This document shows positions 8,539 to 32,000 of a stretch of DNA of 32,000 nt, one piece after another. Numbering within the stretch: position 1 is the first letter of the stretch; each line of letters starts with the position of its first letter. The stretch comes from Acaryochloris marina MBIC11017. GTDB lineage: Bacteria > Cyanobacteriota > Cyanobacteriia > Thermosynechococcales > Thermosynechococcaceae. The notes below the pieces were generated by a model. That model searched no databases and was not told the origin of the DNA. It saw only the letters and a program-made list of their open reading frames with translations. The DNA is taken from contig NC_009925.1 in assembly GCF_000018105.1 (NCBI RefSeq), positions 2,130,001 to 2,162,000 of the forward strand, in the 5' to 3' direction. A program made the position numbers and the translations under genes.

Positions 8539-10581
8539 ATGTTTACACCCCATGAGATTTACTGCCCACTCCCGCAGTCTGAACAGGGGCTCTTGGGACG
8601 AACCCTACCGTCACTACTCGATGAAGCCTGCGAGCGTCATCCGAACGCCCAAGCTTTTAATCATTGGACGAAAGAAGGCTGGGAACCTGTCTCATCACAG
8701 GCATTCCGTACAACCACAGAAGAAATCGCTTTGGGTCTAAAAGAACTTGGGCTAGAGGCTGGAGATCGCATGGCCGTACTCATGCACAGTGATGTCAACT
8801 TCTGCCTGGCTGATATGGGCAGTTTGTTGGCCCACCTGATTAACGTCCCTATTTATATGGGTGAAACCCCAGAAAATATGGTGTTTATTATGCAGCATAG
8901 TGGTGCAAAAGCCCTTATGCTGTCTGATTTACAGGTGCTGCAGCACATTGCTCCTTGCCTACATGAGCTATCTACGCTGAAATTCGTTATTGTTGCCAAT
9001 GGCATAGACTCCAAATTCGGCGAGGATTCTTCGATAGAGCTTCAGACTACTCTTCCAGATAGCATTCAACTTGTGTCTTTGCCTTCCTTGCGGATATGGG
9101 GACAAGAGCAATTATCAGACCAATCCCGGAAGCGGTTGCGAGCTGAGATTTCACCTGAAGATGTGGCCACCATAGTTTATGTTGCTGGTGCGACGGGACG
9201 TTGTCAGGCCTTTAGAAGCCAGGTATTACCCATTTTTCAGGCAGTGACATCCCTTAGACAGCGGCTACAGCATGGTGCTCCCTACCTGTGCGAACTTCCA
9301 AAAGGGGTAATGCTCACCCATGAAAATTTGGCAGGGGATGCACTGGCCGCGTTTAGCATTATGCCGGGTCTTCGAACTGGCCCCCAAGAAACAGTCCTTT
9401 CTTTTCTGCCACTCACCCATGTTTTTGCTCGCGTCATGCTGTATGGGCACCTGAACCATGGCCACACTGTTTATTTCACGACTCCCCAACGAATCGTCAA
9501 GCATATTCGGGAGATCAGGCCCACTATCTTATCGACCGTGCCCCGCCTTTTAGAAAAGGTCTATCAAAAGATTCTGGAGCGAGGCCATCACCTGCCCCAT
9601 TTCCAGCAGATGATTTTCCAGTGGGCGATCGATCTAGCGCATAGATACCAATTGGGTTGCCAGTCGCATGGACTCTATGATTGGAAACTTAAACTAGCAG
9701 ACCAGTTAGTGTATCGCCAGTGGCGCAACGGGTTTGGGGGACGGCTTAGGTATCTCCTCTGTGGGGGGGCTGCCCTCAAGTCAGAGTTAGCTACCGTTTT
9801 GTCTGCTGCAGGGATTCCGGTCCTACAAGGGTATGGCCTTACGCAAACGAGTGCTGTGCTTTGTGTGAATCGCGGGGAACTGAATCGAGCTGGCACGGTA
9901 GGAGTGCCTATTCCTGGTGTTGAAATTGAGATCGCACCCGATGGCGAAGTCTTGGCTAAAGCGCCCTATGTGATGAAAGGCTATTACAACAATCCAGTGG
10001 CAACCCAAGAAGCCATTGACGCAGAAGGTTGGTTTCATACCGGCGACTATGGGGAGATAACCGATGAAGGGTTCTTGACCATTACCGGTCAGAAAAAAAG
10101 TCTTTTTAAGTTATCAACTGGCAAGTATGTGGCCCCTGAACGTATTGAGCATCATCTCGTGCAATCCTCGTTAGTAGACTGGGCTTTGGCGGTGGGTAAC
10201 CAGCGCCCTTACTGTGGTCTGCTGATTTTCCCCAATCGACGGAGACTGCACAGACTGGCAAAGAAGCTGGGGGTCCATCTTCCTCTCAACGAGATCGTAG
10301 ACCATCCGCAGATTATCGCTGAATATCAATTACTGGTCGATGCGGCTAATCAGAAACTCCCGGTGTGGTCAAGGGTGAAACGCTTTCGTCTGATACCTGA
10401 AACACTCACTGTTAGGCATGGATTACTGACATCCTCTCGACAACCCGATCGGGAGGCCACCTGTGCGGCCTTTGCTGAGGAGATTGAAGCACTATATGGC
10501 GCTGTTGTGCCTGCGATAACCCAGCCAGTTTCTCCCACTATTCCACCAACATCTGCATCGCTGAGGTTGGAAGCTTCTTAG
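8539..10581 (+). CDS. Long-chain fatty-acid--CoA ligase (ANL/AMP-binding superfamily) with an atypical, interrupted P-loop
   Basis: ANL core motifs are present: LPLTHVFAR, GYGLTQTSAV, GWFHTGDYGEI, GQKKSLFKLSTGKYVAPERIE. The expected TSGTTGxPKG motif reads YVAGATGR-(32 aa)-PKGVMLTHENL. The 680-aa size is typical of the bacterial long-chain acyl-CoA / acyl-ACP synthetase class. Confidence 0.8.
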   Translation: MFTPHEIYCPLPQSEQGLLGRTLPSLLDEACERHPNAQAFNHWTKEGWEPVSSQAFRTTTEEIALGLKELGLEAGDRMAVLMHSDVNFCLADMGSLLAHLINVPIYMGETPENMVFIMQHSGAKALMLSDLQVLQHIAPCLHELSTLKFVIVANGIDSKFGEDSSIELQTTLPDSIQLVSLPSLRIWGQEQLSDQSRKRLRAEISPEDVATIVYVAGATGRCQAFRSQVLPIFQAVTSLRQRLQHGAPYLCELPKGVMLTHENLAGDALAAFSIMPGLRTGPQETVLSFLPLTHVFARVMLYGHLNHGHTVYFTTPQRIVKHIREIRPTILSTVPRLLEKVYQKILERGHHLPHFQQMIFQWAIDLAHRYQLGCQSHGLYDWKLKLADQLVYRQWRNGFGGRLRYLLCGGAALKSELATVLSAAGIPVLQGYGLTQTSAVLCVNRGELNRAGTVGVPIPGVEIEIAPDGEVLAKAPYVMKGYYNNPVATQEAIDAEGWFHTGDYGEITDEGFLTITGQKKSLFKLSTGKYVAPERIEHHLVQSSLVDWALAVGNQRPYCGLLIFPNRRRLHRLAKKLGVHLPLNEIVDHPQIIAEYQLLVDAANQKLPVWSRVKRFRLIPETLTVRHGLLTSSRQPDREATCAAFAEEIEALYGAVVPAITQPVSPTIPPTSASLRLEAS

Positions 10582-21015: not shown

Positions 21016-22188
21016 TTAACCGTGGCTAGCCTTCATCTGTTCGTAAGCCCAGTCTAACCAAGGCGTCAAGGCTTCCAGATCCGCTGTATCGACTGTGGCT
21101 CCGCCCCAAATTCTCAGTCCTGGGGGCGCATCACGATAAGACCCGATATCATAAGCAACTCCCTCCTTATCTAGCAAGGTCGCTAATTGCTTTGCTCCTT
21201 TGGCCTGATCTTCGGCAGAGAGAGCCGTATACCAAGGATCCACGATTTTAAGACAAATAGACGTATTGGAGCGAGTAGCCGGATCGACGGCGAGGAAATC
21301 CACCCAATCTGTGCGGTCAACCCAGTTAGTGATTGCAGTCAGGTTTGCTTGAGAACGCGCGATCAATGCCGAGACTCCACCCAGGCTCTCAGCCCATTTC
21401 AGTCCATCCAAAGCATCTTCGACACAGAGCATAGAAGGAGTGTTGATGGTTGCACCAGTGAAAATCGCTGCATTCAGCTTGCCTTTTTTCGTTAACTGAA
21501 AAATCTTGGGAAGTGGCCATGCAGGTGAATAGGACTCCAATCGCTCGACTGCCCGAGGGCTCAAAACCAACATGCCGTGGGCCGCTTCTCCACCCATTAC
21601 CTTTTGCCAGGACCAAGTGACCACATCCAGCTTGGCCCAGGGAATATCCATGGCAAAGGTGGCGGACGTGGCATCTGCAATCGTGAGGCCCTGACGATTA
21701 TCTGGAATCCAGTCGCCGTTGGGAACTTTGACCCCGGAGGTGGTGCCATTCCAGGTGAATACGATGTCGCGATCGCAATCCAGTTGCGACAGATCCGGCA
21801 AATGGCCATATTCGGCCTTGGTGATTCGGCAATCCGACAGTTTTAACTGCTTTTGTACATCCGTCACCCAGCCAGACCCAAAGCTTTCCCAAGCCACCAT
21901 CTCTACACCGCGAGCACCGAGGAGGGACCACATGGCGATTTCTACCGCACCCGTATCGGAGGCGGGGACAATGCCGCAGAGATAGTCTTCAGGAATACCG
22001 AGAGTAGATTTGGTCCGATCAATCACCTCTTTCAGGCGGGCTTTGCCCGGACCAGACCGATGGGAGCGGCCCACCAACGCATTATTAAGAGCTTCCAGAC
22101 TCCAACCAGGGCGCTTGGAGCAAGGGCCTGACGAAAAGTAGGGACGTTGGGGGCGTTGGCTAGGTTGGGACGTCATATCAAATTCCAC
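21016..22188 (-). CDS. serC: Phosphoserine aminotransferase (class V aminotransferase, the roughly 380-aa actinobacterial/cyanobacterial SerC type)
   Basis: N-terminus reads [20 protein letters not shown]. Other matching stretches: [60 protein letters not shown]. The start could be ATG 22176 instead. Confidence 0.75.
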
Positions 22189-22671: not shown

Positions 22672-23174
22672 TGGCACCGCCCCTGAAGCTCTATCTCATT
22701 CGTCATGGAATTGCCGAAGAGCGACAGCCCCATCTCCCTGATCAGCAGCGGGCCTTAACCGCTAAAGGTCGACAGAAAACCCAGAAAGTGGCCCAGCGAC
22801 TACAAACGCTAGGAATCCATTTTGATGATTTGCAGACCAGTCCGCTAGTCCGTGCCCATCAAACCGCTGAGATTCTCCAACACCAAGGATTAGTCCCCCG
22901 CATCCATGTCTCCGATTTATTAAGTCCCGACGGCAACTGGCCAGACTGGCTCCAATGGCTACAGGATTGGCGAAACCCAGGTTTGACTCATTTAGCCTTG
23001 GTCGGGCATGAACCGAATCTGAGCACATGGGCGGAGATTTTAGTTTGGGGACAACCCCGTCAGCAACTGGTTGTGAAGAAGGCTGGTATGATTGGACTAC
23101 TCCTGCCTGAGCATCACAACCCTGTAGGGCAAAGCACCCTGTTTTGGTTGACTGCTCCAAAATTGCTGTTTTAG
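22671..23174 (+). CDS. sixA: Phosphohistidine phosphatase SixA (histidine-phosphatase superfamily)
   Basis: LYLIRHGIAEER, RALTAKGRQKT, TSPLVRAHQTAEIL and LVGHEPNLS. Its start overlaps the DUF3288 stop codon (TAATG). Confidence 0.7.
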   Translation: MAPPLKLYLIRHGIAEERQPHLPDQQRALTAKGRQKTQKVAQRLQTLGIHFDDLQTSPLVRAHQTAEILQHQGLVPRIHVSDLLSPDGNWPDWLQWLQDWRNPGLTHLALVGHEPNLSTWAEILVWGQPRQQLVVKKAGMIGLLLPEHHNPVGQSTLFWLTAPKLLF

Positions 23175-23260
23175 AGCCCATACCCTCCTTCGCCCTGCCC
23201 GGCTCCCCCTCAGTGCTTCCAGGCAGTTGGCGATCTATTCACCTTCATCTGAGAGACACT

Positions 23261-24397
23261 ATGGTCGCTTGTGAATTTCAACCCGGTTTAGAAGGAATTC
23301 CTGCTGCTCAATCCCAGATCAGCTTTGTGAATGGCCAAGTCGGTAAGTTGGAGTATCGCGGTGTTCCCATTGAAGCCCTCGCAGACAACAGCAGCTTCCT
23401 GGAAACGGCCTATCTATTGATTTGGGGGGAATTTCCCAAATCGGATGATCTAGACGCTTTTCAAGAAGAAATCACCCATCATCGCCGCATCAAATATCGC
23501 ATCCGAGACATGATGAAGTGTTTTCCCGAAAGCGGTCACCCGATGGATGCCCTACAGGCGTCAGCCGCAGCTCTAGGACTGTTCTATTCCCGACGGGCTT
23601 TAGATGATCCCATTTATATTCGTCGGGCCGTGGTGCGATTACTGGCAAAAATCCCAACGATGGTGGCAGCCTTTGAGCATATTCGCAAAGGTAATGACCC
23701 GGTGCGACCTCGGGATGATTTGAGCTATGCTGCCAACTTCCTCTACATGATGAATGAGCAGGAGCCGGACCCCTTTTTAGCCCAAATCTTTGACACCTGC
23801 TTGATCCTGCATGCCGAGCATACAATGAACGCCTCAACCTTCTCGGCTCGGGTCACCGCCTCTACCCTCACCGATCCCTATGCCATTGTGGCTTCAGCCG
23901 TGGGCACCTTAGCCGGGCCTTTACATGGGGGAGCCAACGAAGAAGTGATCACTATGCTGGCGGAGATCGGCTCGGTGGAGAATGTCCAGCCTTTCTTAGA
24001 AGAGAAGCTCGCCACCAAATCTAAAATTATGGGATTTGGGCATCGTGTCTATAAAGTGAAGGATCCGAGAGCAAAGATCTTACAGAAATTAGCCGAACAA
24101 TTGTTTGATAAAACCGGTGGCGATCCCTCCTATGAAATTGCCCTAGCGCTGGAAAAAGCAGTGGCCGAAAAACTGGGGAGTAAAGGGATTTATCCCAATG
24201 TTGATTTTTACTCTGGGCTGGTTTACCAAAAACTGGGAATTCCCACGGATTTATTTACACCTATCTTTGCGATCGCAAGAGTGGCTGGCTGGTTAGCCCA
24301 CTGGCGAGAACAGTTGGAAACGAACCGGATTTATCGCCCCAGCCAGGTTTATATCGGCGACCATAGTCTTGCTTATATCCCGCCAGAGAGCCGTTAG
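23261..24397 (+). CDS. gltA: Citrate synthase
   Basis: Track ORF 23144..24397 trimmed to ATG 23261 (MVACEFQPGLEGIPAAQSQISFVNG). The 39-aa extension overlaps sixA and does not look like citrate synthase. Motifs: LILHAEHTMNASTF, GPLHGGANE, MGFGHRVYK, NVDFYSG. Confidence 0.9.
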   Translation: MVACEFQPGLEGIPAAQSQISFVNGQVGKLEYRGVPIEALADNSSFLETAYLLIWGEFPKSDDLDAFQEEITHHRRIKYRIRDMMKCFPESGHPMDALQASAAALGLFYSRRALDDPIYIRRAVVRLLAKIPTMVAAFEHIRKGNDPVRPRDDLSYAANFLYMMNEQEPDPFLAQIFDTCLILHAEHTMNASTFSARVTASTLTDPYAIVASAVGTLAGPLHGGANEEVITMLAEIGSVENVQPFLEEKLATKSKIMGFGHRVYKVKDPRAKILQKLAEQLFDKTGGDPSYEIALALEKAVAEKLGSKGIYPNVDFYSGLVYQKLGIPTDLFTPIFAIARVAGWLAHWREQLETNRIYRPSQVYIGDHSLAYIPPESR

Positions 24398-24552
24398 AAC
24401 AGACATAGACTAGAATCAATCCTTTCCTTCAGCCCTTAGGGAAATGGATTTCGGAGCATGAAGTTATTCTCCTAGAAACTCGCCTAGGCGTATATACTGG
24501 TTTAGGCATCAAGAAACTTTACAAATCATAAATTCAGTAAGAATGGGCGGCA

Positions 24553-25671
24553 ATGAACCCAGGTATTGATCTTGAACAACGCTTTGTTGAAACTTTAATG
24601 GAATTGGGGTTAACCCCCGGTGTCGCCAAAACCATTTGGCTTCCGATCCCCATGTTGTTGATGATTATCGGCGCAACAGTGGGAGTCCTGGTTTCGGTTT
24701 GGCTAGAACGAAAAATTTCAGCGGCGGCTCAGCAACGGATTGGCCCCGAATATATTGGACCGCTGGGCATCCTAGCGCCAGTGGCAGACGGCATCAAACT
24801 CGTCTTTAAAGAAGACATTGTGCCAGCCAATACCGACCCCTGGCTTTTTACGTTAGGTCCCATCCTGGTCGTCATCCCTGTCTTTTTCTCCTATCTGATT
24901 GTCCCGTTTGGTCAGAATATTCTGATTACAGACCTAGGGATTGGCATCTTTTTCTGGATTGCCTTATCTAGCATTGCGCCAATCGGTCTGCTAATGGCGG
25001 GATATTCCTCCAATAACAAGTACTCTTTGCTGGGTGGACTCCGAGCTGCAGCCCAATCCATCAGCTATGAAATCCCACTGGCCTTAGCAGTCTTGGCTGT
25101 GGTGATGATGTCCAACAGCCTCAGCACCATTGACATTGTTAACCAGCAATCAGGCTATGGCATCCTCGGATGGAACGTTATTCGCCAGCCCATTGGGTTC
25201 ATGTTGTTTTGGATTGCAGCCTTGGCGGAATGTGAACGTCTCCCTTTTGACTTACCCGAAGCGGAAGAAGAATTGGTGGCCGGTTACCAAACCGAATATG
25301 CAGGCATGAAGTTTGCTCTGTTCTATTTGGGGTCCTACGTCAACCTCGTACTGTCCTCAATTCTGGTAGCGGTCCTCTACTTTGGCGGTTGGGACCTCCC
25401 CATTCCAGCAACCATGATTGCAGACTGGATTAATGTCGATCCCAACAATGCCATTTTTGAGTTAGTGACGGCTGGCCTAGGCTTGGTAATGACCCTGCTG
25501 AAAGCCTATTTCTTCCTGTTCCTAGCTATTTTGTTGCGCTGGACCGTTCCTCGAGTCCGTATTGACCAGCTTTTAGATTTTGGTTGGAAATTTTTACTGC
25601 CTGTGGGATTGGTGAACCTCCTTCTCACCGCCGGTCTGAAATTAGCGTTTCCTTTTGCCTTTGGTGGATAG
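24553..25671 (+). CDS. ndhA: NAD(P)H-quinone oxidoreductase subunit 1 (NDH-1 subunit A / NuoH homologue)
   Basis: [73 protein letters not shown]. Confidence 0.95.
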
Positions 25672-25742
25672 GCACAAGGTAAATTTTCTAAACTTAAAAC
25701 TAACGCCAGCCTTCATCTGCCGACATCTGAGAGTGAACATCC

Positions 25743-26345
25743 ATGCTCAAGTTTCTGAATCAAGTCACCAGTTACGGAAAAGAATCTTTCCAAGCGGCTC
25801 GTTACATTGGCCAAGGTCTAGCCGTGACCTTCGACCATATGAAGCGCCGTCCGATTACGGTGCAGTATCCCTATGAAAAGCTGATTCCTTCCGAGCGATT
25901 TCGCGGTCGGATTCACTTTGAATTTGACAAGTGCATTTCTTGCGAAGTCTGTGTTCGAGTATGCCCGATTAATCTGCCCGTGGTGGATTGGGAGTTCAAT
26001 AAGGAGATCAAGAAGAAGCAGCTCAAGCACTACAGTATTGACTTTGGGGTCTGTATTTTCTGTGCCAACTGTGTGGAATACTGTCCCACAAACTGTCTCT
26101 CGGTCACCGAAGAGTACGAGCTATCGACCTTCGATCGCCATGAGCTGAACTTCGATAACGTGGCGATGGGACGTTTACCCTACAAAGTGACGCAAGATCC
26201 AATGGTCACCCCTATTCGCGAGTTTGCTTACTTACCAGAATCAGAAATGGATGGTCATAACGTGGACCATACGGCACCCCGAGCTGGGCAAACCCCCGCC
26301 GAGATTGTCGCCAGCACACCGAAACCCGAAACCAAGGAGGGCTAA
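25743..26345 (+). CDS. ndhI: NAD(P)H-quinone oxidoreductase subunit I (2x[4Fe-4S] ferredoxin-type)
   Basis: Two cysteine clusters, [12 protein letters not shown] and [12 protein letters not shown]. The N-terminus MLKFLNQV...[13 protein letters not shown] is typical of NdhI. Confidence 0.95.
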
Positions 26346-26348
26346 TCA

Positions 26349-26945
26349 GTGAATCTTGCAGAAGGGGTTCAGCTCGTCTCCCTCATTCTTTTGTCTGTCA
26401 TGATGCTTGGAGCTGCTTTAGGAGTGGTTTTATTTGAGAGCATTGTTTACTCAGCGTTTACCCTAGGTGCAGTCTTTATCAGCATTGCGGGTCTTTACAT
26501 TTTGCTGAATGCGGACTTTGTATCGGCGGCCCAAATCCTGATCTATGTGGGTGCGGTCAACGTCCTCATTCTGTTTGCGATCATGCTGGTCAATAAAACT
26601 GAAGACTTTAAACCTCTACCCAGACGCTGGATTCGGAAAGTCTCTACCGCTTTTGTGTCCTTGGCTCTGTTTACCCTGCTGGCAACAATGGTCCTGCAAA
26701 CCAACTGGCCGGTAGATGTAGCCCTCGCCCCCCCTGCTTCATCAGTGGAAACCATTGGCATCCATTTCTTCACCGATTATTTGTTGCCCTTTGAATTGGC
26801 GTCCATTCTCTTGCTGATGGCCTTGGTCGGTGCAGTTGTCTTAGCCCGCCGGGAAACCATTATTGGTGAAGAAACTGCCATTGTGGGAGAAGAGCCAGCG
26901 CCAGTACTGGAATTACCAGAGCGTCCCAAAGAGCCTGTTGCTTAG
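26349..26945 (+). CDS. ndhG: NAD(P)H-quinone oxidoreductase subunit 6 (NuoJ homologue); GTG start
   Basis: 198-aa hydrophobic protein containing AAQILIYVGAVNVLILFAIML. It occupies the expected position between ndhI and ndhE. Confidence 0.9.
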   Translation: MNLAEGVQLVSLILLSVMMLGAALGVVLFESIVYSAFTLGAVFISIAGLYILLNADFVSAAQILIYVGAVNVLILFAIMLVNKTEDFKPLPRRWIRKVSTAFVSLALFTLLATMVLQTNWPVDVALAPPASSVETIGIHFFTDYLLPFELASILLLMALVGAVVLARRETIIGEETAIVGEEPAPVLELPERPKEPVA

Positions 26946-26989
26946 CGCTGAATCCGTTTTTAAGTCTTGGAGAATTTTAGAGAATCCCT

Positions 26990-27295
26990 ATGAACCTTGA
27001 GTTCTTTTTACTCTTAGCGGCTGCCCTATTTTGTATTGGCATCTATGGTCTAGTGACCAGCCGTAACGCAGTCCGGGTATTAATGTCAGTAGAGCTACTG
27101 CTGAATGCCGTTAATTTAAATTTAGTGTCCTTCTCCAACTTCTTGGATGGCCAAAACATTAATGGTCAGGTATTTACCGTATTTGTCATTACCATTGCGG
27201 CCGCCGAAGCGGCGGTTGGCTTGGCGATTATCCTCTCCATCTACCGCAACCGTGACACAGTCGATATGGAGCAGTTCAATTTGCTGAAGTGGTAG
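26990..27295 (+). CDS. ndhE: NAD(P)H-quinone oxidoreductase subunit 4L (NuoK homologue)
   Basis: 101 aa, with [32 protein letters not shown]...[11 protein letters not shown]. Confidence 0.9.
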
Positions 27296-27377
27296 CAGGC
27301 CGTCTTATCTTGGAGTCAAGAGTGGCGATCTCACTGCTGAGCTGATTATGCTTGAGATGTAGCGCATCGCAACCTGC

Positions 27378-27941
27378 ATGAGAGATCAGCTCAAAACCCA
27401 ACTGCAAATTTTAGGACTCTGTGCAGTCACACTGTGGAGCATCCAGCTTATCAATTGGTTGACGGGTGATTTACTGATTCAGTTTGGTATTCAACCCCGT
27501 AGCCTTGTTGGCCTACGGGGTATTCTATTTGCGCCTTTTCTACACGGCAACTTCAGACATCTAATCGCGAATACAGCTCCTTTTCTGGTCTTGGGCGGAT
27601 TGGTGATGGTCCGCCGGATTATGGACTTTTTCTCCGTCAGTCTGATTGTGATGGTGGTGGGTGGTCTAGGCACCTGGCTGATTGGCGGCAGTGATACCCT
27701 CCATATTGGGGCCAGTGGCTTGGTCTTCGGTTACCTGGGCTATCTGCTATTTCGGGGATACTTTGAGCGCAGTTGGCCGGCCATTACCCTGTCGGTGTTT
27801 GTGGCCATTGTCTATGGCAGTATGCTGTTTGGCTTGTTACCGACCATGCCCCATATTTCTTGGGAAGGCCACCTGTTTGGATTTATCGGGGGCGGACTAG
27901 CGGCGAAATGGCTGACCGCAAAACCCAAATCAGCAGCCTAA
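27378..27941 (+). CDS. Rhomboid-family intramembrane serine protease
   Basis: Six hydrophobic segments, FLHGNFRHLIANT, catalytic-type GASGLVFG and a distal HLFGFIGG. Confidence 0.75.
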   Translation: MRDQLKTQLQILGLCAVTLWSIQLINWLTGDLLIQFGIQPRSLVGLRGILFAPFLHGNFRHLIANTAPFLVLGGLVMVRRIMDFFSVSLIVMVVGGLGTWLIGGSDTLHIGASGLVFGYLGYLLFRGYFERSWPAITLSVFVAIVYGSMLFGLLPTMPHISWEGHLFGFIGGGLAAKWLTAKPKSAA

Positions 27942-28002
27942 TTGCCCCAAGAAGCTCACAAATAAGCGGTAGAATTATTAAGTAATTTTTCAAAATGTTA
28001 CT

Positions 28003-31000
28003 ATGCCTCGCCGCGCTAATGCTCCCAAACAAGAGAAGAAAGCAGCGGCCAGTCGTTCCTCTCCCAATGGTCGGGTCAAGAAAACAAAAATTCCCGCCGA
28101 CCATCGGATTCGAATTCGGGGAGCCCGTCAGCATAACCTCAAAAATATTGATTTAGACCTGCCCCGCGATCAGCTGATCGTCTTTACGGGCGTGTCGGGA
28201 TCGGGGAAATCTTCCCTGGCCTTTGACACCATCTTTGCGGAGGGGCAACGACGCTATGTGGAATCTCTCAGTGCCTATGCCCGCCAATTTTTAGGCCAGG
28301 TTGATAAGCCAGATGTGGATGCCATCGAGGGGCTGAGTCCCGCCATTTCCATCGACCAAAAATCCACCTCCCACAACCCCCGGTCCACGGTGGGGACAGT
28401 GACAGAGATTTATGACTACCTTCGCCTACTATACGGACGGGCAGGAGAACCCCACTGTCCCCATTGCGATCGCGCCATTACACCCCAAACCATTGACCAG
28501 ATGGTCGATCAGGTGATGGACCTACCGGAGAAAGCGCGGTTCCAAATTCTGGCCCCCGTAGTTCGCGGCAAAAAAGGCACCCATAAAAAGCTGCTGTCTA
28601 GTCTGGCTTCGGAGGGATTTGTCCGGGTGCGGGTAAATGGCGACGTGCGAGAACTGAGTGATGCCATCACCTTGGATAAAAACTTCAAGCACGACATTGA
28701 AGTAGTCGTAGATCGATTGGTGATGAAGCCGGGGATTGAAGAACGGCTTGCGGATTCCCTCTCCACCGGACTACAACGGGCTGAAGGCATCGTCATGGTT
28801 GACGTTCTGCCTGCCCCCACCGATAAGGTGGTGCCCATTACCCAGGCAAAATCCCTGAAGGTGGCAGAGGCAGAAGGCAGCTACGGTGACGAAACCCAAC
28901 CCAAACTCTTTGTCTTTTCCGAAAACTTTGCCTGTCCTGAGCATGGGGCAGTGATGGAAGAACTATCGCCTCGTTTGTTCTCCTTTAACTCTCCCTATGG
29001 GGCCTGTCCAGAATGTCACGGCTTGGGTAGTCTTAAAGTTTTTTCTGAAGATTTGATTGTCCCAGATCCCAATCTGCCCGTCTATGCCGCCATTGCTCCC
29101 TGGTCGGAGAAAGATAATACCTATTACTTCTCGCTGCTTTATAGCGTGGGCCAAGCCTTCGGGTTTGAGCTACAAACAAGCTGGGCTGATCTAACGGACG
29201 AGCAGCGCCATATCGTTTTACATGGCACCAAAGAACCCATCTATATGGAAGTGGATTCTCGCTATCGAGAATCGAAGGGCTATCACAAACGCTATGAGGG
29301 CGTGATTCCCCTGCTGGATCGGCATTATCGAGAAACCACCTCCGAGCAGTATCGGCAAAAGCTAGAAAAATATTTGATTCAGCAGTCCTGTGAAGTATGT
29401 GGGGGGCGGCGACTGAAACCAGAAGCCTTATCGGTACGGATGGGCCAATTCTGCCTGCCCGATCTGACCAGCGTTTCTATTCGCGACTGCCTGGAACGGA
29501 TTAATGCCATGACTTTGACTGCTCGCCAGGCCAAAATTGGGGAGCTAGTGCTCAAAGAAATTAAGGCCCGATTGCAGTTTTTGCTGGACGTGGGGCTGGA
29601 TTATCTAACTCTAGATCGAACAGCCATGACCCTATCGGGAGGAGAGGCCCAACGGATCCGTCTGGCAACTCAAATTGGTGCAGGGTTAACGGGGGTTCTC
29701 TACGTATTGGACGAGCCCAGTATTGGTTTGCATCAACGAGATAATCATCGGTTGCTGCAAACCCTAACCAAGCTGCGGGACCTCGGCAATACCTTGATTG
29801 TGGTGGAACATGACGAGGATACAATTCGAGCTGCAGACCACCTAGTGGATATCGGTCCAGCGGCGGGGGTGCATGGCGGCGATATTGTCGTGCAGGGGGG
29901 CTTAGAAGAACTGTTGGATAATGGCGAATCCTTGACGGGGGCTTACCTGTCTGGGAAGCGGGTGATTCCTACCCCGCCTGAACGTCGAGCCGGGAATGGT
30001 CGGGCGTTGCGCCTCCACAATGCCTATCGCAACAATCTCCAAAGCCTGGATGTGGAAATTCCCTTGGGCAAGCTGGTTTGTATTACCGGGGTATCAGGGT
30101 CGGGGAAATCGACGCTGATGAATGAATTGCTTTATCCGGCGTTGCAGCATCACTTGGGCTTTAAGGTACCGTTTCCGAATGAGTTGGACCGAGTGGCAGG
30201 TCTGAAGAGTTTGGATAAGGCCATCGTCATTGACCAATCCCCGATTGGTCGCACGCCTCGTTCCAATCCTGCCACCTATACGGGGGTGTTTGACGTGATT
30301 CGGAGCGTGTTTTCGGAAACGGTGGAAGCCAAGGCCCGGGGCTATAAGCCCGGTCGCTTTTCCTTTAACGTTAAGGGCGGGCGCTGTGAAGCCTGCGGTG
30401 GGCAAGGGGTTAATGTGATTGAGATGAATTTCCTGCCGGATGTTTATGTGCAGTGCGAGGTTTGTAAGGGGGCACGGTATAACCGGGAAACGCTGCAGGT
30501 GAAGTATAAGGGCAAGTCAATTGCCGATGTGCTGGCGATGACGGCGGAGGAAGCCCTGAAGTTTTGTGAGAATATCCCGAAGGCGGCAAATAAGCTGCAA
30601 ACGATGGTGGATGTGGGACTAGGGTATGTACGGCTGGGACAAACGGCTCCAACGCTGTCGGGTGGAGAAGCCCAGCGGTTGAAGTTGGCGACGGAGCTAT
30701 CCCGGCGGGCGACGGGTAAGACGCTGTATTTAATTGATGAACCGACGACGGGGTTGTCTTTTTATGATGTACACAAGTTACTGGATGTGTTGCAGCGGCT
30801 GGTGGATAAGGGCAATTCAGTATTGGTGATTGAGCATAATTTGGATGTGATTCGCTGCTCGGATTGGGTGATTGATTTGGGACCAGATGGGGGCGATCGT
30901 GGGGGTGAATTGGTGGCAACGGGGACGCCAGAAGCGGTTGCGAATGTCGCTGGGTCTTATACGGGACAATATCTTAAGCAGGTGCTAGCGCTTCATCCGC

Positions 31001-31023
31001 CAACCATTGCTGCTGACGCTTAA
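28003..31023 (+). CDS. uvrA: Excinuclease ABC subunit A
   Basis: [19 protein letters not shown], two Walker A motifs (GVSGSGKSS at the N-terminus and GVSGSGKST later), zinc modules CPHCDR and CEACGGQG...CEVCKG, and two LSGGE signatures. Confidence 0.95.
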
Positions 31024-31140
31024 ATCCGCTAATTCACGTATTAGAATACAGTTGCAATCTGATTATCCTGATTGCTCTTGATATAGAGCAAATTCAAGAG
31101 ATTAATTGTTGGCTTTTCAAGGGTCGGCCAGGAGCAATGA

Positions 31141-32000
31141 GTGGCAGCTAATTTCCAATACGATGTTTTTCTCAGCCACAGTGCCAAGAATAAAGATGTG
31201 GTCAGGAAGATTGCAGAGCGGCTCAAATCTGCTGGGGTAAAAGTCTGGTTCGATGAGTGGAGCATTCGACCTGGAGATAGCATTCCAGCCAAAATTGAGG
31301 AAGGGTTAGAACAGTCCCGAGTGTTGGTACTGTGCATGTCTGCTGAGGCATTTGGGTCGGATTGGGCACAGTTGGAGAGTTATACCTTTCGGTTTAAAGA
31401 CCCACTAAACAAGGACCGTCGCTTTATTCCCCTCCGATTAGATGACGCCACTATCAGAGGATCACTGGCACAGTTTAGCTATATCGATTGGCGTAGGCAG
31501 GATAGCTCTGAAGCATATGGCAAACTGCTGACAGCTTGTCAACCTTATCAAGACGCTCCGCTACCAGACCCAAAACAACTCACTCAAGACGAATTTAAGT
31601 TAAAAATTCTATCGCTCGGACACACTGACGCCGTCTGGAGCGTGGCCTTCAGCGCCGACGGTCGCCGCGCCCTCTCCGGCTCCAATGACAACACCGTGCG
31701 CCTGTGGGACGTCGATACCGGACAATCCCTCAGGGTCATGGAAGGACACACTGACTCCGTCAATAGCGTGGCCTTCAGCGCCGACGGTCGCCGCGCCCTC
31801 TCCGGCTCCTCTGACAGAACCGTGCGCTTGTGGGACGTCGATACCGGACAATCCCTCCGAGTCATGGAAGGACACACTGACTCCGTCCAGAGCGTGGCCT
31901 TCAGCGCCGACGGTCGCCGCGCCCTCTCCGGCTCCTATGACAGAACCGTGCGCTTGTGGGACGTCGATACCGGACAATCCCTCCGAGTCATGGAAGGACA
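31141..32000 (+). CDS. TIR-domain protein fused directly to WD40 repeats (no NTPase module between them); 3' end lies outside the window
   Basis: Not in the ORF track, because it has no stop codon within the window. GTG 31141 immediately follows an in-frame TGA (31138-31140) and lies 6 nt after GGAG (31131-31134). Translation: MAANFQYDVFLSHSAKNKDVVRKIAERLKSAGVKVWFDEWSIRPGDSIPAKIEEGLEQSRVLVLCMSAEAFGSDWAQLESYTF...RFIPLRLDD (TIR_2-like). After a roughly 25-aa linker come repeats of GHTDxVxSVAFSADGRRALSGSxDxTVRLWDVDTGQSLRVME. Confidence 0.8.
   Translation, partial: MAANFQYDVFLSHSAKNKDVVRKIAERLKSAGVKVWFDEWSIRPGDSIPAKIEEGLEQSRVLVLCMSAEAFGSDWAQLESYTFRFKDPLNKDRRFIPLRLDDATIRGSLAQFSYIDWRRQDSSEAYGKLLTACQPYQDAPLPDPKQLTQDEFKLKILSLGHTDAVWSVAFSADGRRALSGSNDNTVRLWDVDTGQSLRVMEGHTDSVNSVAFSADGRRALSGSSDRTVRLWDVDTGQSLRVMEGHTDSVQSVAFSADGRRALSGSYDRTVRLWDVDTGQSLRVMEG
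31618..32000 (+). repeat. Tandem 126-bp (42-codon) repeats encoding WD40 blades; three full units plus the start of a fourth
   Basis: Units start at 31618, 31744, 31870 and 31996 (each begins GGACACACTGAC). Units 2 and 3 differ at 3 of 126 nt by hand alignment. Confidence 0.9.

Follow-up and report, generated by a model that had tools for sequence, protein, structure and literature searches.

We analyzed a stretch of 32,000 nucleotides from the chromosome of Acaryochloris marina MBIC11017 (NC_009925.1, positions 2,130,001 to 2,162,000; hereafter the window), the end of which holds the beginning of a gene encoding a TIR domain followed by WD40 repeats. We found that bases 31141–32000 are the first fifth of AM1_2164, which encodes a single-gene protein, and that AM1_2164 is a bacterial Roco/AP-GTPase-type protein and not an NTPase-free TIR-WD40 protein. 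Its domains are arranged in the order TIR, linker of about 25 amino acids (aa), 14 WD40 repeats, Ras/Roc GTPase, COR-like region, Cys4 zinc ribbon and DUF4365. We consider it fairly probable that this Roco-type TIR-WD40-GTPase-DUF4365 protein acts as a GTPase-gated receptor in cell death or defence, with an NADase and a nuclease as its effectors.

The window ends within AM1_2164

All 286 residues encoded from base 31141 to the window edge were identical to those of a deposited protein of 1409 aa (P0124; ABW27178.1, WP_012162657.1, UniProt B0BZW8). This protein is the product of locus AM1_2164 on the 6,503,724-bp chromosome of A. marina MBIC11017, and it is annotated as 'WD-repeat protein' or 'TIR domain-containing protein' (GenBank, RefSeq). 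The part of AM1_2164 beyond base 32000 is known from the deposited MBIC11017 protein and from the corresponding locus of a sister strain (AP026075.1; locus L078). The frame has no stop up to base 32000, which amounts to 286 codons. Because the TGA at 31138–31140 lies directly before it, the GTG at 31141 is the sole possible start, and both WP_012162657.1 and ABW27178.1 begin at the same residue (MAANFQYD...).

An initial annotation of the window had proposed a plus-strand frame starting at a GTG, preceded by GGAG and an in-frame TGA, and open to the window edge, and the sequence agrees. It had further described a TIR_2-type N-terminal domain, a glutamate (Glu79, 31375–31377) in the catalytic position of NADase TIR domains and a short linker, about 25 aa long, that leads to the WD40 blades. 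The profile match and the alignment described below bear out the first two of these features, the second as a prediction from sequence, and the first repeat begins at aa 160. Two minus-strand open reading frames (ORFs) in this region, 31584–31877 and 31609–31977, were confirmed to be antisense shadows of the repeats, as it had stated. The TIR-WD40 ORF itself is absent from the ORF track because the program that lists the ORFs omits those running off the end of the source sequence.

In the sister strain, the counterpart of AM1_2164 (L078, 8001–12230) is intact and consists of one ORF of 1409 codons, with 2 amino-acid differences. The possibility raised in the initial annotation that the full-length gene is frameshifted or truncated is contradicted by the deposited protein of 1409 aa and by the single intact ORF of the same length in the sister strain. 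Pseudogene decay, or an artefact created when repeats collapse during assembly, is in our view a highly improbable explanation of this gene. Short-read assemblies do break or become mis-joined in the repeats. At the contig end of an Acaryochloris sp. metagenome-assembled genome (MAG; L001, 10001–11348), six WD40 repeats are followed by the reverse complement, an inverted mis-join, and a separate 3.9-kb contig (P0242) carries the 3΄-terminal 838 codons of this gene. The peptide of the minus-strand ORF at 31609–31977 recurs where this contig flips into inverted repeats; this MAG, truncated in the repeats, was the best match of the GTDB genome scan, with 89% identity. However, the same 1409-codon ORF is present in two complete A. 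marina chromosomes, and the 14 repeats keep an exact register of 42 aa throughout.

A Roc-type GTPase and a predicted second effector follow the repeats

Searches with hidden Markov models matched TIR_2 and WD40 in the window, and the test for a hidden NTPase revealed a Ras/Roc domain beyond aa 286. In a search with the C-terminal 686 aa, this GTPase (aa ~755–915) matched both Pfam Ras (E = 6.4e-22) and Roc (E = 4.3e-17) above the cut-off. Its motifs are a P-loop (G760-x4-G765-K766-T767), the switch I threonine T784, D810-F-G-G-Q814, R869-x-D871 and T898-S-A. In an alignment of 46 homologues, the G1 motif GxxxxGKT, the switch I threonine, DFGGQ, RxD and TSA were invariant or nearly so, and the GTPase therefore looks functional as judged from its residues.

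We then considered the region at aa ~916–1190. An AlphaFold2 (AF2) model of aa 724–1409 was obtained with a mean predicted local distance difference test (pLDDT) score of 81.6 and a predicted template modelling (TM) score of 0.73. Its best PDB match was the leucine-rich repeat (LRR)-Roc-COR structure of CtRoco (6hlu; E = 5.9e-19, 515 aligned columns), and further matches were LRRK1, LRRK2 and the RocCORdC structure of MbRoco2 (4wnr; TM score 0.61, target-normalised). Since the alignments to Roco structures are about three times as long as the GTPase domain, we call this region COR-like.

The COR-like region is followed by a Cys4 zinc ribbon (CxxC...CxxC, aa ~1196–1224) and by DUF4365 (aa 1282–1405; Pfam, E = 3.7e-25), in which D1296, E1298, E1300, K1302 and Q1316-x-K1318 were invariant or nearly so among the 46 homologues. 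In TmuRE, Q62 and K64 are the DUF4365 active site predicted by alignment, and the Q62A/K64A double mutant was used as an inactive control (PMC10810196). The QxK motif is present in AM1_2164, and its DUF4365 is accordingly classified, as a prediction, as a PD-(D/E)xK nuclease domain of the SPARDA type.

STAND profiles (NACHT, NB-ARC and AAA_16-type) gave no match in aa 1–286 or 724–1409, and aa 160–747 are all WD40. The statement in the initial annotation that the protein has no STAND NTPase module is therefore correct as far as NACHT and NB-ARC are concerned; however, an NTPase switch does exist, of the Roco/AP-GTPase type and located after the repeats. The accompanying proposal of a propeller that needs no NTPase switch to control TIR oligomerisation fails, since the full protein has a Ras/Roc GTPase with intact G1–G5. 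The protein had also been described as a single-chain sensor-effector; it is indeed one polypeptide, but it also contains the GTPase, the COR-like region and DUF4365 as a predicted second effector. The initial annotation knew of no characterised defence system with this architecture; the source data published by Kaur et al. 2021 (PMC8195603), however, contain an entry for 'TIR+BetaPropeller+AP-GTPase'. The idea of an NTPase-free protein of unknown architecture arose because the window ends in the middle of the gene, at residue 286 of 1409.

Complete relatives share the GTPase

Among 77 GTDB loci, 14 contained complete TIR-WD40 ORFs, and all 14 ran on into a Roc-like GTPase and a COR-like middle region; the C-terminal end was DUF4365 in 13 of them and a second TIR domain in the remaining one (L016). 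These results bear on the alternative of a two-module TIR-WD40 sensor-effector without an NTPase, in which ligand binding by the propeller alone drives TIR oligomerisation. The window itself shows TIR and WD40 only, and one relative from Gemmatimonadales (L024) has a TIR-WD40 frame that ends after 457 aa, near a contig end. For AM1_2164, however, this alternative is refuted by the 100% identity of the window protein to the N-terminus of a 1409-aa protein with Ras/Roc, COR-like and DUF4365 regions. Together with the 14 complete relatives that run on into a GTPase, and with the fact that most 'short' database entries derive from incomplete genes that a break in the repeats has left at contig ends, this leaves the alternative with a negligible probability. 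Indeed, a protein search with the TIR domain and linker returned only proteins of up to 290 aa, many of them partial at contig ends; short TIR and TIR-WD40 entries are common because the repeats break assemblies and leave partial genes there.

A protein search with a full-length cyanobacterial homologue listed 120 full-length proteins of 1088–1486 aa. With the part from the COR-like region to DUF4365 as the query, 499 clusters (50% identity) were found at E ≤ 1e-30 and 1617 at E ≤ 1e-10. Members of the family come from Cyanobacteria, Acidobacteriota, Verrucomicrobiota, Planctomycetota, Desulfobacterota and further groups. The lengths of the family's proteins peak near 570–750, 1110–1150 and 1370–1430 aa, and we interpret these three groups as putative zero-, one- and two-propeller versions. 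Two homologues, L007 (Acidobacteria, 1126 aa) and L002 (Blastocatellia, 993+ aa), have the same head, followed by a P-loop domain and a long C-terminus.

Some variants were seen at individual loci. At L016 (10001–13516, Pyrinomonadaceae), the second TIR domain replaces the C-terminal DUF4365, which suggests that effectors may be swapped at this position. At L002, a small gene pair lies directly upstream of the homologue (9124–9977), and the product of the second gene is PemK/MazF-type toxin-like by eye; the pair was not present at other loci. In Chthoniobacterales/Verrucomicrobiota (L025–L058 and others), we observed dozens of ORFs of ~100–150 aa with 70–79% identity to the first ~100 residues of the TIR domain. 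Several of these short ORFs can occur in one genome, as in MAG JBBQCM01 with five loci, and they may be TIR-only genes, fragments or frameshifted copies.

The TIR domain has the active-site residues of bacterial NADases

The TIR domain, which spans aa 1–135 in the full protein, matched Pfam TIR_2 at aa 9–130 over the whole profile (positions 1–122 of 122; E = 4.6e-30, 105 bits against a cut-off of 28). In an AF2 model of this domain (pLDDT 78.5), the top PDB matches were all TIR domains, and the best fold match was the NAD-mimic-bound filament of AbTir (7uxu; TM score 0.67/0.78). By sequence, the best PDB matches were likewise bacterial NADase TIR domains, namely AbTir (E = 4e-15), PdTIR, BtTir and BtpA. 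The segment DW75AQLE79 of AM1_2164 aligned with DW204TNYE208 of AbTir, where E208 holds the place of E642 in SARM1, and among 48 aligned family members E79 was invariant and W75 was at least 90% conserved. AbTir, PdTIR and BtpA thus have the DW...E motif, the catalytic glutamate and the α-C tryptophan in common with AM1_2164; however, these are small proteins in which a coiled coil is joined to the TIR domain, and some are secreted as virulence factors, whereas the TIR domain of AM1_2164 heads a receptor-like protein of 1409 aa.

Catalysis by AbTir hinges on E208, and its E208A mutant is inactive; W204 is needed for the cyclisation of ADP-ribose; the active sites of TIR domains assemble between two TIR domains (bioRxiv 10.1101/2022.05.07.491051). 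The profile, the modelled flavodoxin-like TIR fold and the glutamate in the catalytic position support the assignment of the AM1_2164 domain to the NADase-competent class, and NAD+ cleavage is predicted.

It is also conceivable that the TIR domain of the same protein is mainly a cyclase, and that it produces a cyclic ADP-ribose isomer as a signal to its own nuclease or to a receptor encoded elsewhere instead of depleting NAD+ as an executioner. Trp75 corresponds in position to AbTir W204, a site that is aromatic in TIR domains that make cyclic ADP-ribose and is needed for cyclisation, and DUF4365 already provides a second, potentially lethal effector. However, although it is required, an aromatic residue there does not by itself suffice for cyclisation, no receptor domain of the ThsA-like, SLOG, Macro or SAVED kind turned up in the searched regions (aa 1–286 and 724–1409), and no neighbour gene was conserved over the 14 loci. 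We therefore judge a primarily cyclase role to be unlikely.

The WD40 repeats are nearly identical and vary at few positions

Within the window, the Pfam WD40 profile matched three times from about aa 160 onwards (E = 2.1e-39), and Tandem Repeats Finder described the DNA at 31618–32000 as 3.0 copies of a 126-bp period with 94% identity. The full protein has 14 repeats at aa 160–747, 11 of which lie past the window; two propellers of seven blades each could be built from them. Repeats 1–13 had a mean identity of 88% at the amino-acid level (P0124) and 92% at the nucleotide level (L078 copy), and variation was concentrated at unit positions 4, 5, 7, 23 and 25.

We compared the two A. marina strains with respect to these positions. 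The only two amino-acid differences in 1409 residues were at aa 250 and aa 332, which correspond to unit positions 7 and 5, respectively. Over 8,860 aligned bases there were 6 nucleotide differences, and 4 of them fell in WD40 repeat 3 (31888, 31889, 31942 and 31944). The two-base change at 31888–31889 between the window and L078 replaces Gln250, at one of the hypervariable positions of the repeat, by Trp, and the differences in this repeat also include a synonymous AGA-to-CGC swap. This pattern looks like exchange between repeats. In addition, the G+C content was 0.63 in the WD40 block (window 31618–32000; L078 8478–10241), compared with ~0.47 in the TIR region and 0.44–0.53 in the Roc, COR-like and DUF4365 regions. 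The jump could reflect which amino acids are encoded, a biased gene conversion between the repeats, or a repeat unit that came from a foreign source.

In fungal NWD/HET-E receptors, the WD40 repeats are highly conserved internally, and variation is found in few positions. The repeats of AM1_2164 follow a similar pattern, with near-identical tandem 42-aa units and few variable positions.

The gene appears to stand alone

The region from 23141 to 32000 of the window was 99.93% identical to the L078 locus, and both share the upstream order citrate synthase, ndhA/I/G/E, rhomboid and uvrA. Downstream of the gene in L078 are an FAD monooxygenase gene and then two psbA genes. Around the 14 distant full-length loci, no conserved neighbour gene was found beyond synteny between close relatives; therefore, we regard the AM1_2164-type gene as a stand-alone, single-gene system. 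A scan of the spacer between uvrA and the TIR gene for promoters and terminators found nothing.

A. marina also encodes a paralogue of 1449 aa (P0236), which has the same layout of TIR, two propellers, GTPase and DUF4365. Its head is 54% identical to that of AM1_2164, and its WD40 repeats, which are 61–65% identical, are more diverged. An exact search with a 41-mer from the linker found no match in metagenome contigs.

The coordinates of the features at the window edge are summarized in Table 1. Two further minus-strand ORFs were noted elsewhere in the window. One, of 390 aa (21016–22188), lies between polA and a histidine-phosphatase gene and had no Pfam match at E ≤ 1e-5. The other, of 169 aa and rich in proline and serine (30410–30919), is antisense within uvrA and is almost certainly a shadow ORF.

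Table 1. Features at the 3΄ edge of the window (positions are those of the window)
Feature	Position	Strand	Basis
GGAG Shine-Dalgarno-like motif, 6 nt 5΄ of the start codon	31131..31134	+	direct reading of the sequence
In-frame TGA adjoining the start codon on its 5΄ side	31138..31140	+	sequence
5΄ part of AM1_2164, codons 1–286 of 1409, cut by the window edge	31141..32000	+	286/286 residues identical to the deposited protein
TIR domain, aa 9–130	31165..31530	+	Pfam TIR_2, AF2 model, PDB fold match
Trp75, aligned with AbTir W204 (α-C tryptophan)	31363..31365	+	alignment, conservation
Glu79 (GAG), position of the catalytic glutamate in NADase TIR domains	31375..31377	+	alignment with AbTir E208, conservation
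Linker from TIR to the first WD40 blade, aa 131–159	31531..31617	+	pLDDT <50 for aa 138–160; partly disordered in the model
WD40 repeats 1–3 of 14, 42 aa/126 bp each	31618..32000	+	Tandem Repeats Finder, Pfam
Antisense ORF of 97 aa in the WD40 repeats, not a gene	31584..31877	-	opposite a strong WD40 frame identical to the annotated protein
Antisense ORF of 122 aa in the WD40 repeats, not a gene	31609..31977	-	periodic peptide (GIDVPQAHG...) mirrors the sense repeats

Comparison with known systems

The kind of architecture seen in AM1_2164 is already known from comparative genomics. Kaur et al. 2021 (eLife 10:e70394, PMC8195603) described proteins with an AP-GTPase and COR, N-terminal LRRs and variable effectors, including TIR, as predicted counter-invader systems. 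The row 'TIR+BetaPropeller+AP-GTPase' of their source data includes, for example, NIM12946.1, a 1108-aa protein from Aminicenantes annotated as DUF4365-containing (PMC8195603). AM1_2164 resembles these systems in that one chain combines repeats, a Ras-like AP-GTPase/Roc domain and effectors such as TIR; they too occur in cyanobacteria, Verrucomicrobia and other groups, with several paralogues possible per genome. In the main text of that study, however, the LRRs are N-terminal and the effectors C-terminal, whereas AM1_2164 has WD40 repeats, an N-terminal TIR domain and, as a second effector, a C-terminal DUF4365. The A. marina accession was not found in the portion of the supplement text available for that study (PMC8195603). 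To the tabulated architecture, our analysis adds the COR-like fold, the identification of a SPARDA-type DUF4365 whose active site is conserved, and the hypervariability of the repeats.

Roco proteins (CtRoco 6hlu, Methanosarcina barkeri Roco2, LRRK1 and LRRK2) similarly have Roc followed by a COR-like fold, with repeats N-terminal of Roc, and LRRK2 also has a WD40 propeller and an output enzyme. AM1_2164 differs from them in that it has no Pfam COR match, its outputs are a TIR domain and a PD-(D/E)xK nuclease and not a kinase, its WD40 repeats precede Roc and its G4 motif is GRxD. CtRoco undergoes GTP-driven monomerisation (PMC11052575).

STAND/NLR-like proteins (Avs, bNACHT and bacterial TIR-NLR) and fungal HET-E/NWD proteins share with AM1_2164 a tripartite plan of effector, NTPase switch and repeat sensor. 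However, the NTPase of AM1_2164 is a small Ras-like GTPase and not an AAA+ domain of the NACHT/NB-ARC type, no STAND family was matched, and the order is effector, repeats, NTPase instead of effector, NTPase, repeats.

The effector families of AM1_2164 are the same as those of SPARDA and SPARTA, namely DUF4365 with QxK and TIR with a catalytic glutamate, which are activated there by target-induced oligomerisation; SPARTA structures were among the PDB fold matches of the AM1_2164 TIR domain. The DUF4365/DREN nuclease of SPARDA is switched on by filament formation (PMC12205087). AM1_2164 differs in that it lacks APAZ and an Argonaute partner, would sense through WD40 repeats and a GTPase where these systems use a guide RNA, and has both effectors on one chain.

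Membership in several defence systems was examined and rejected. For SPARDA/SPARTA, the PADLOC Aga_REase matches (in the L007 homologue) covered the nuclease part only, and the neighbours in L078 are uvrA and the FAD monooxygenase gene. For Thoeris, the ThsB profiles matched weakly and partially, NCBIfam ThcB4 scored 23.7 bits against a cut-off of 220, and there was no ThsA-like neighbour. The PADLOC match to TIR-NLR covered the TIR part alone, and that to retron-TIR was confined to the shared effector domain.

Proposed function of AM1_2164

AM1_2164 has the components of an NLR-like receptor, with a Roco-type GTPase at its core: a variable repeat sensor, a nucleotide switch joined to a COR-like module for dimerisation, and effectors. 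Effectors of these kinds need induced proximity elsewhere, as seen in the dimer sites of TIR domains and the filaments of SPARDA, and CtRoco provides a GTP-driven switch. For this reason, we propose that a signal in AM1_2164 would pass from ligand to GTPase to assembly to effectors. The repetitive, hypervariable propellers would sense a ligand derived from an invader or from stress, and its binding would be coupled to the Roc-COR GTPase cycle, which governs the monomer, dimer or oligomer state in CtRoco and LRRK2. Assembly would then unite TIR domains into composite NADase sites and would also cluster the DUF4365 domains into an active collateral nuclease, as in SPARDA. As a result, the infected cell would be killed or arrested, that is, by abortive infection or regulated cell death. 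The general placement of the protein in conflict and cell-death biology, as suggested in the initial annotation, is supported.

Several observations weigh against this proposal. The neighbours are housekeeping genes (ndh, rhomboid and uvrA; FAD monooxygenase and psbA), with no defence island. The G4 motif of the GTPase is GRxD and not NKxD. By sequence, COR was not detected: there was no Pfam COR match at E ≤ 1 and no PDB match by phmmer for the middle region, and for this reason the COR assignment comes solely from the predicted fold. The fold match itself is moderate, with a TM score of 0.49 normalised to the query and a root-mean-square deviation of 6.5 Å. In the table of Kaur et al., COR is not marked for 'TIR+BetaPropeller+AP-GTPase', and the restriction endonuclease (REase) is also unmarked. 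The order effector, repeats, GTPase, COR, effector is unlike that of characterised Roco and NLR proteins, and no experimental study of AM1_2164 or its family was found in the searchable literature.

The protein may also be viewed differently, as a GTPase-regulated signalling or scaffold protein, or as a cyanobacterial cell-death factor linked to stress or development, with no antiviral role; the TIR domain would then be an interaction module, and the WD40 repeats would bind endogenous partners. The housekeeping neighbourhood, which is syntenic in two strains and free of defence islands, is compatible with such a role, and we know of no established physiological role for bacterial Roco proteins. 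However, the invariant catalytic glutamate and the conserved QxK of the nuclease argue for active effectors, and the repeats are hypervariable and apparently recombining, as is typical for non-self sensors. Moreover, the patchy occurrence across phyla and the presence of paralogues within a genome are hallmarks of conflict systems (PMC8195603). On balance, a function outside defence seems to us rather improbable, and a GTPase-gated receptor in cell death or defence is the reading that we prefer.

These results also carry a caution for scans of this type, since ORFs at window edges and repeat-rich genes that break assemblies can give rise to spurious 'new architectures'. AM1_2164 is an annotated but unstudied gene of a large family, with about 500 clusters at 50% identity. 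We propose tentatively, as a possibility to which we do not yet commit ourselves, that the TIR-WD40-Roc-COR-like-DUF4365 family may be a GTPase-gated, single-chain immune or cell-death receptor that fires NAD+ cleavage and a collateral nuclease together, and whose sensor repeats diversify by recombination. If true, this would be the first physiological function for bacterial Roco proteins, which are relatives of LRRK2, and it would represent NLR-like logic built on a small GTPase in place of a STAND ATPase. The family offers an experimental entry both to the roles of bacterial LRRK2-like Roco proteins and to the replacement of the STAND ATPase by a small GTPase in NLR-like immunity.

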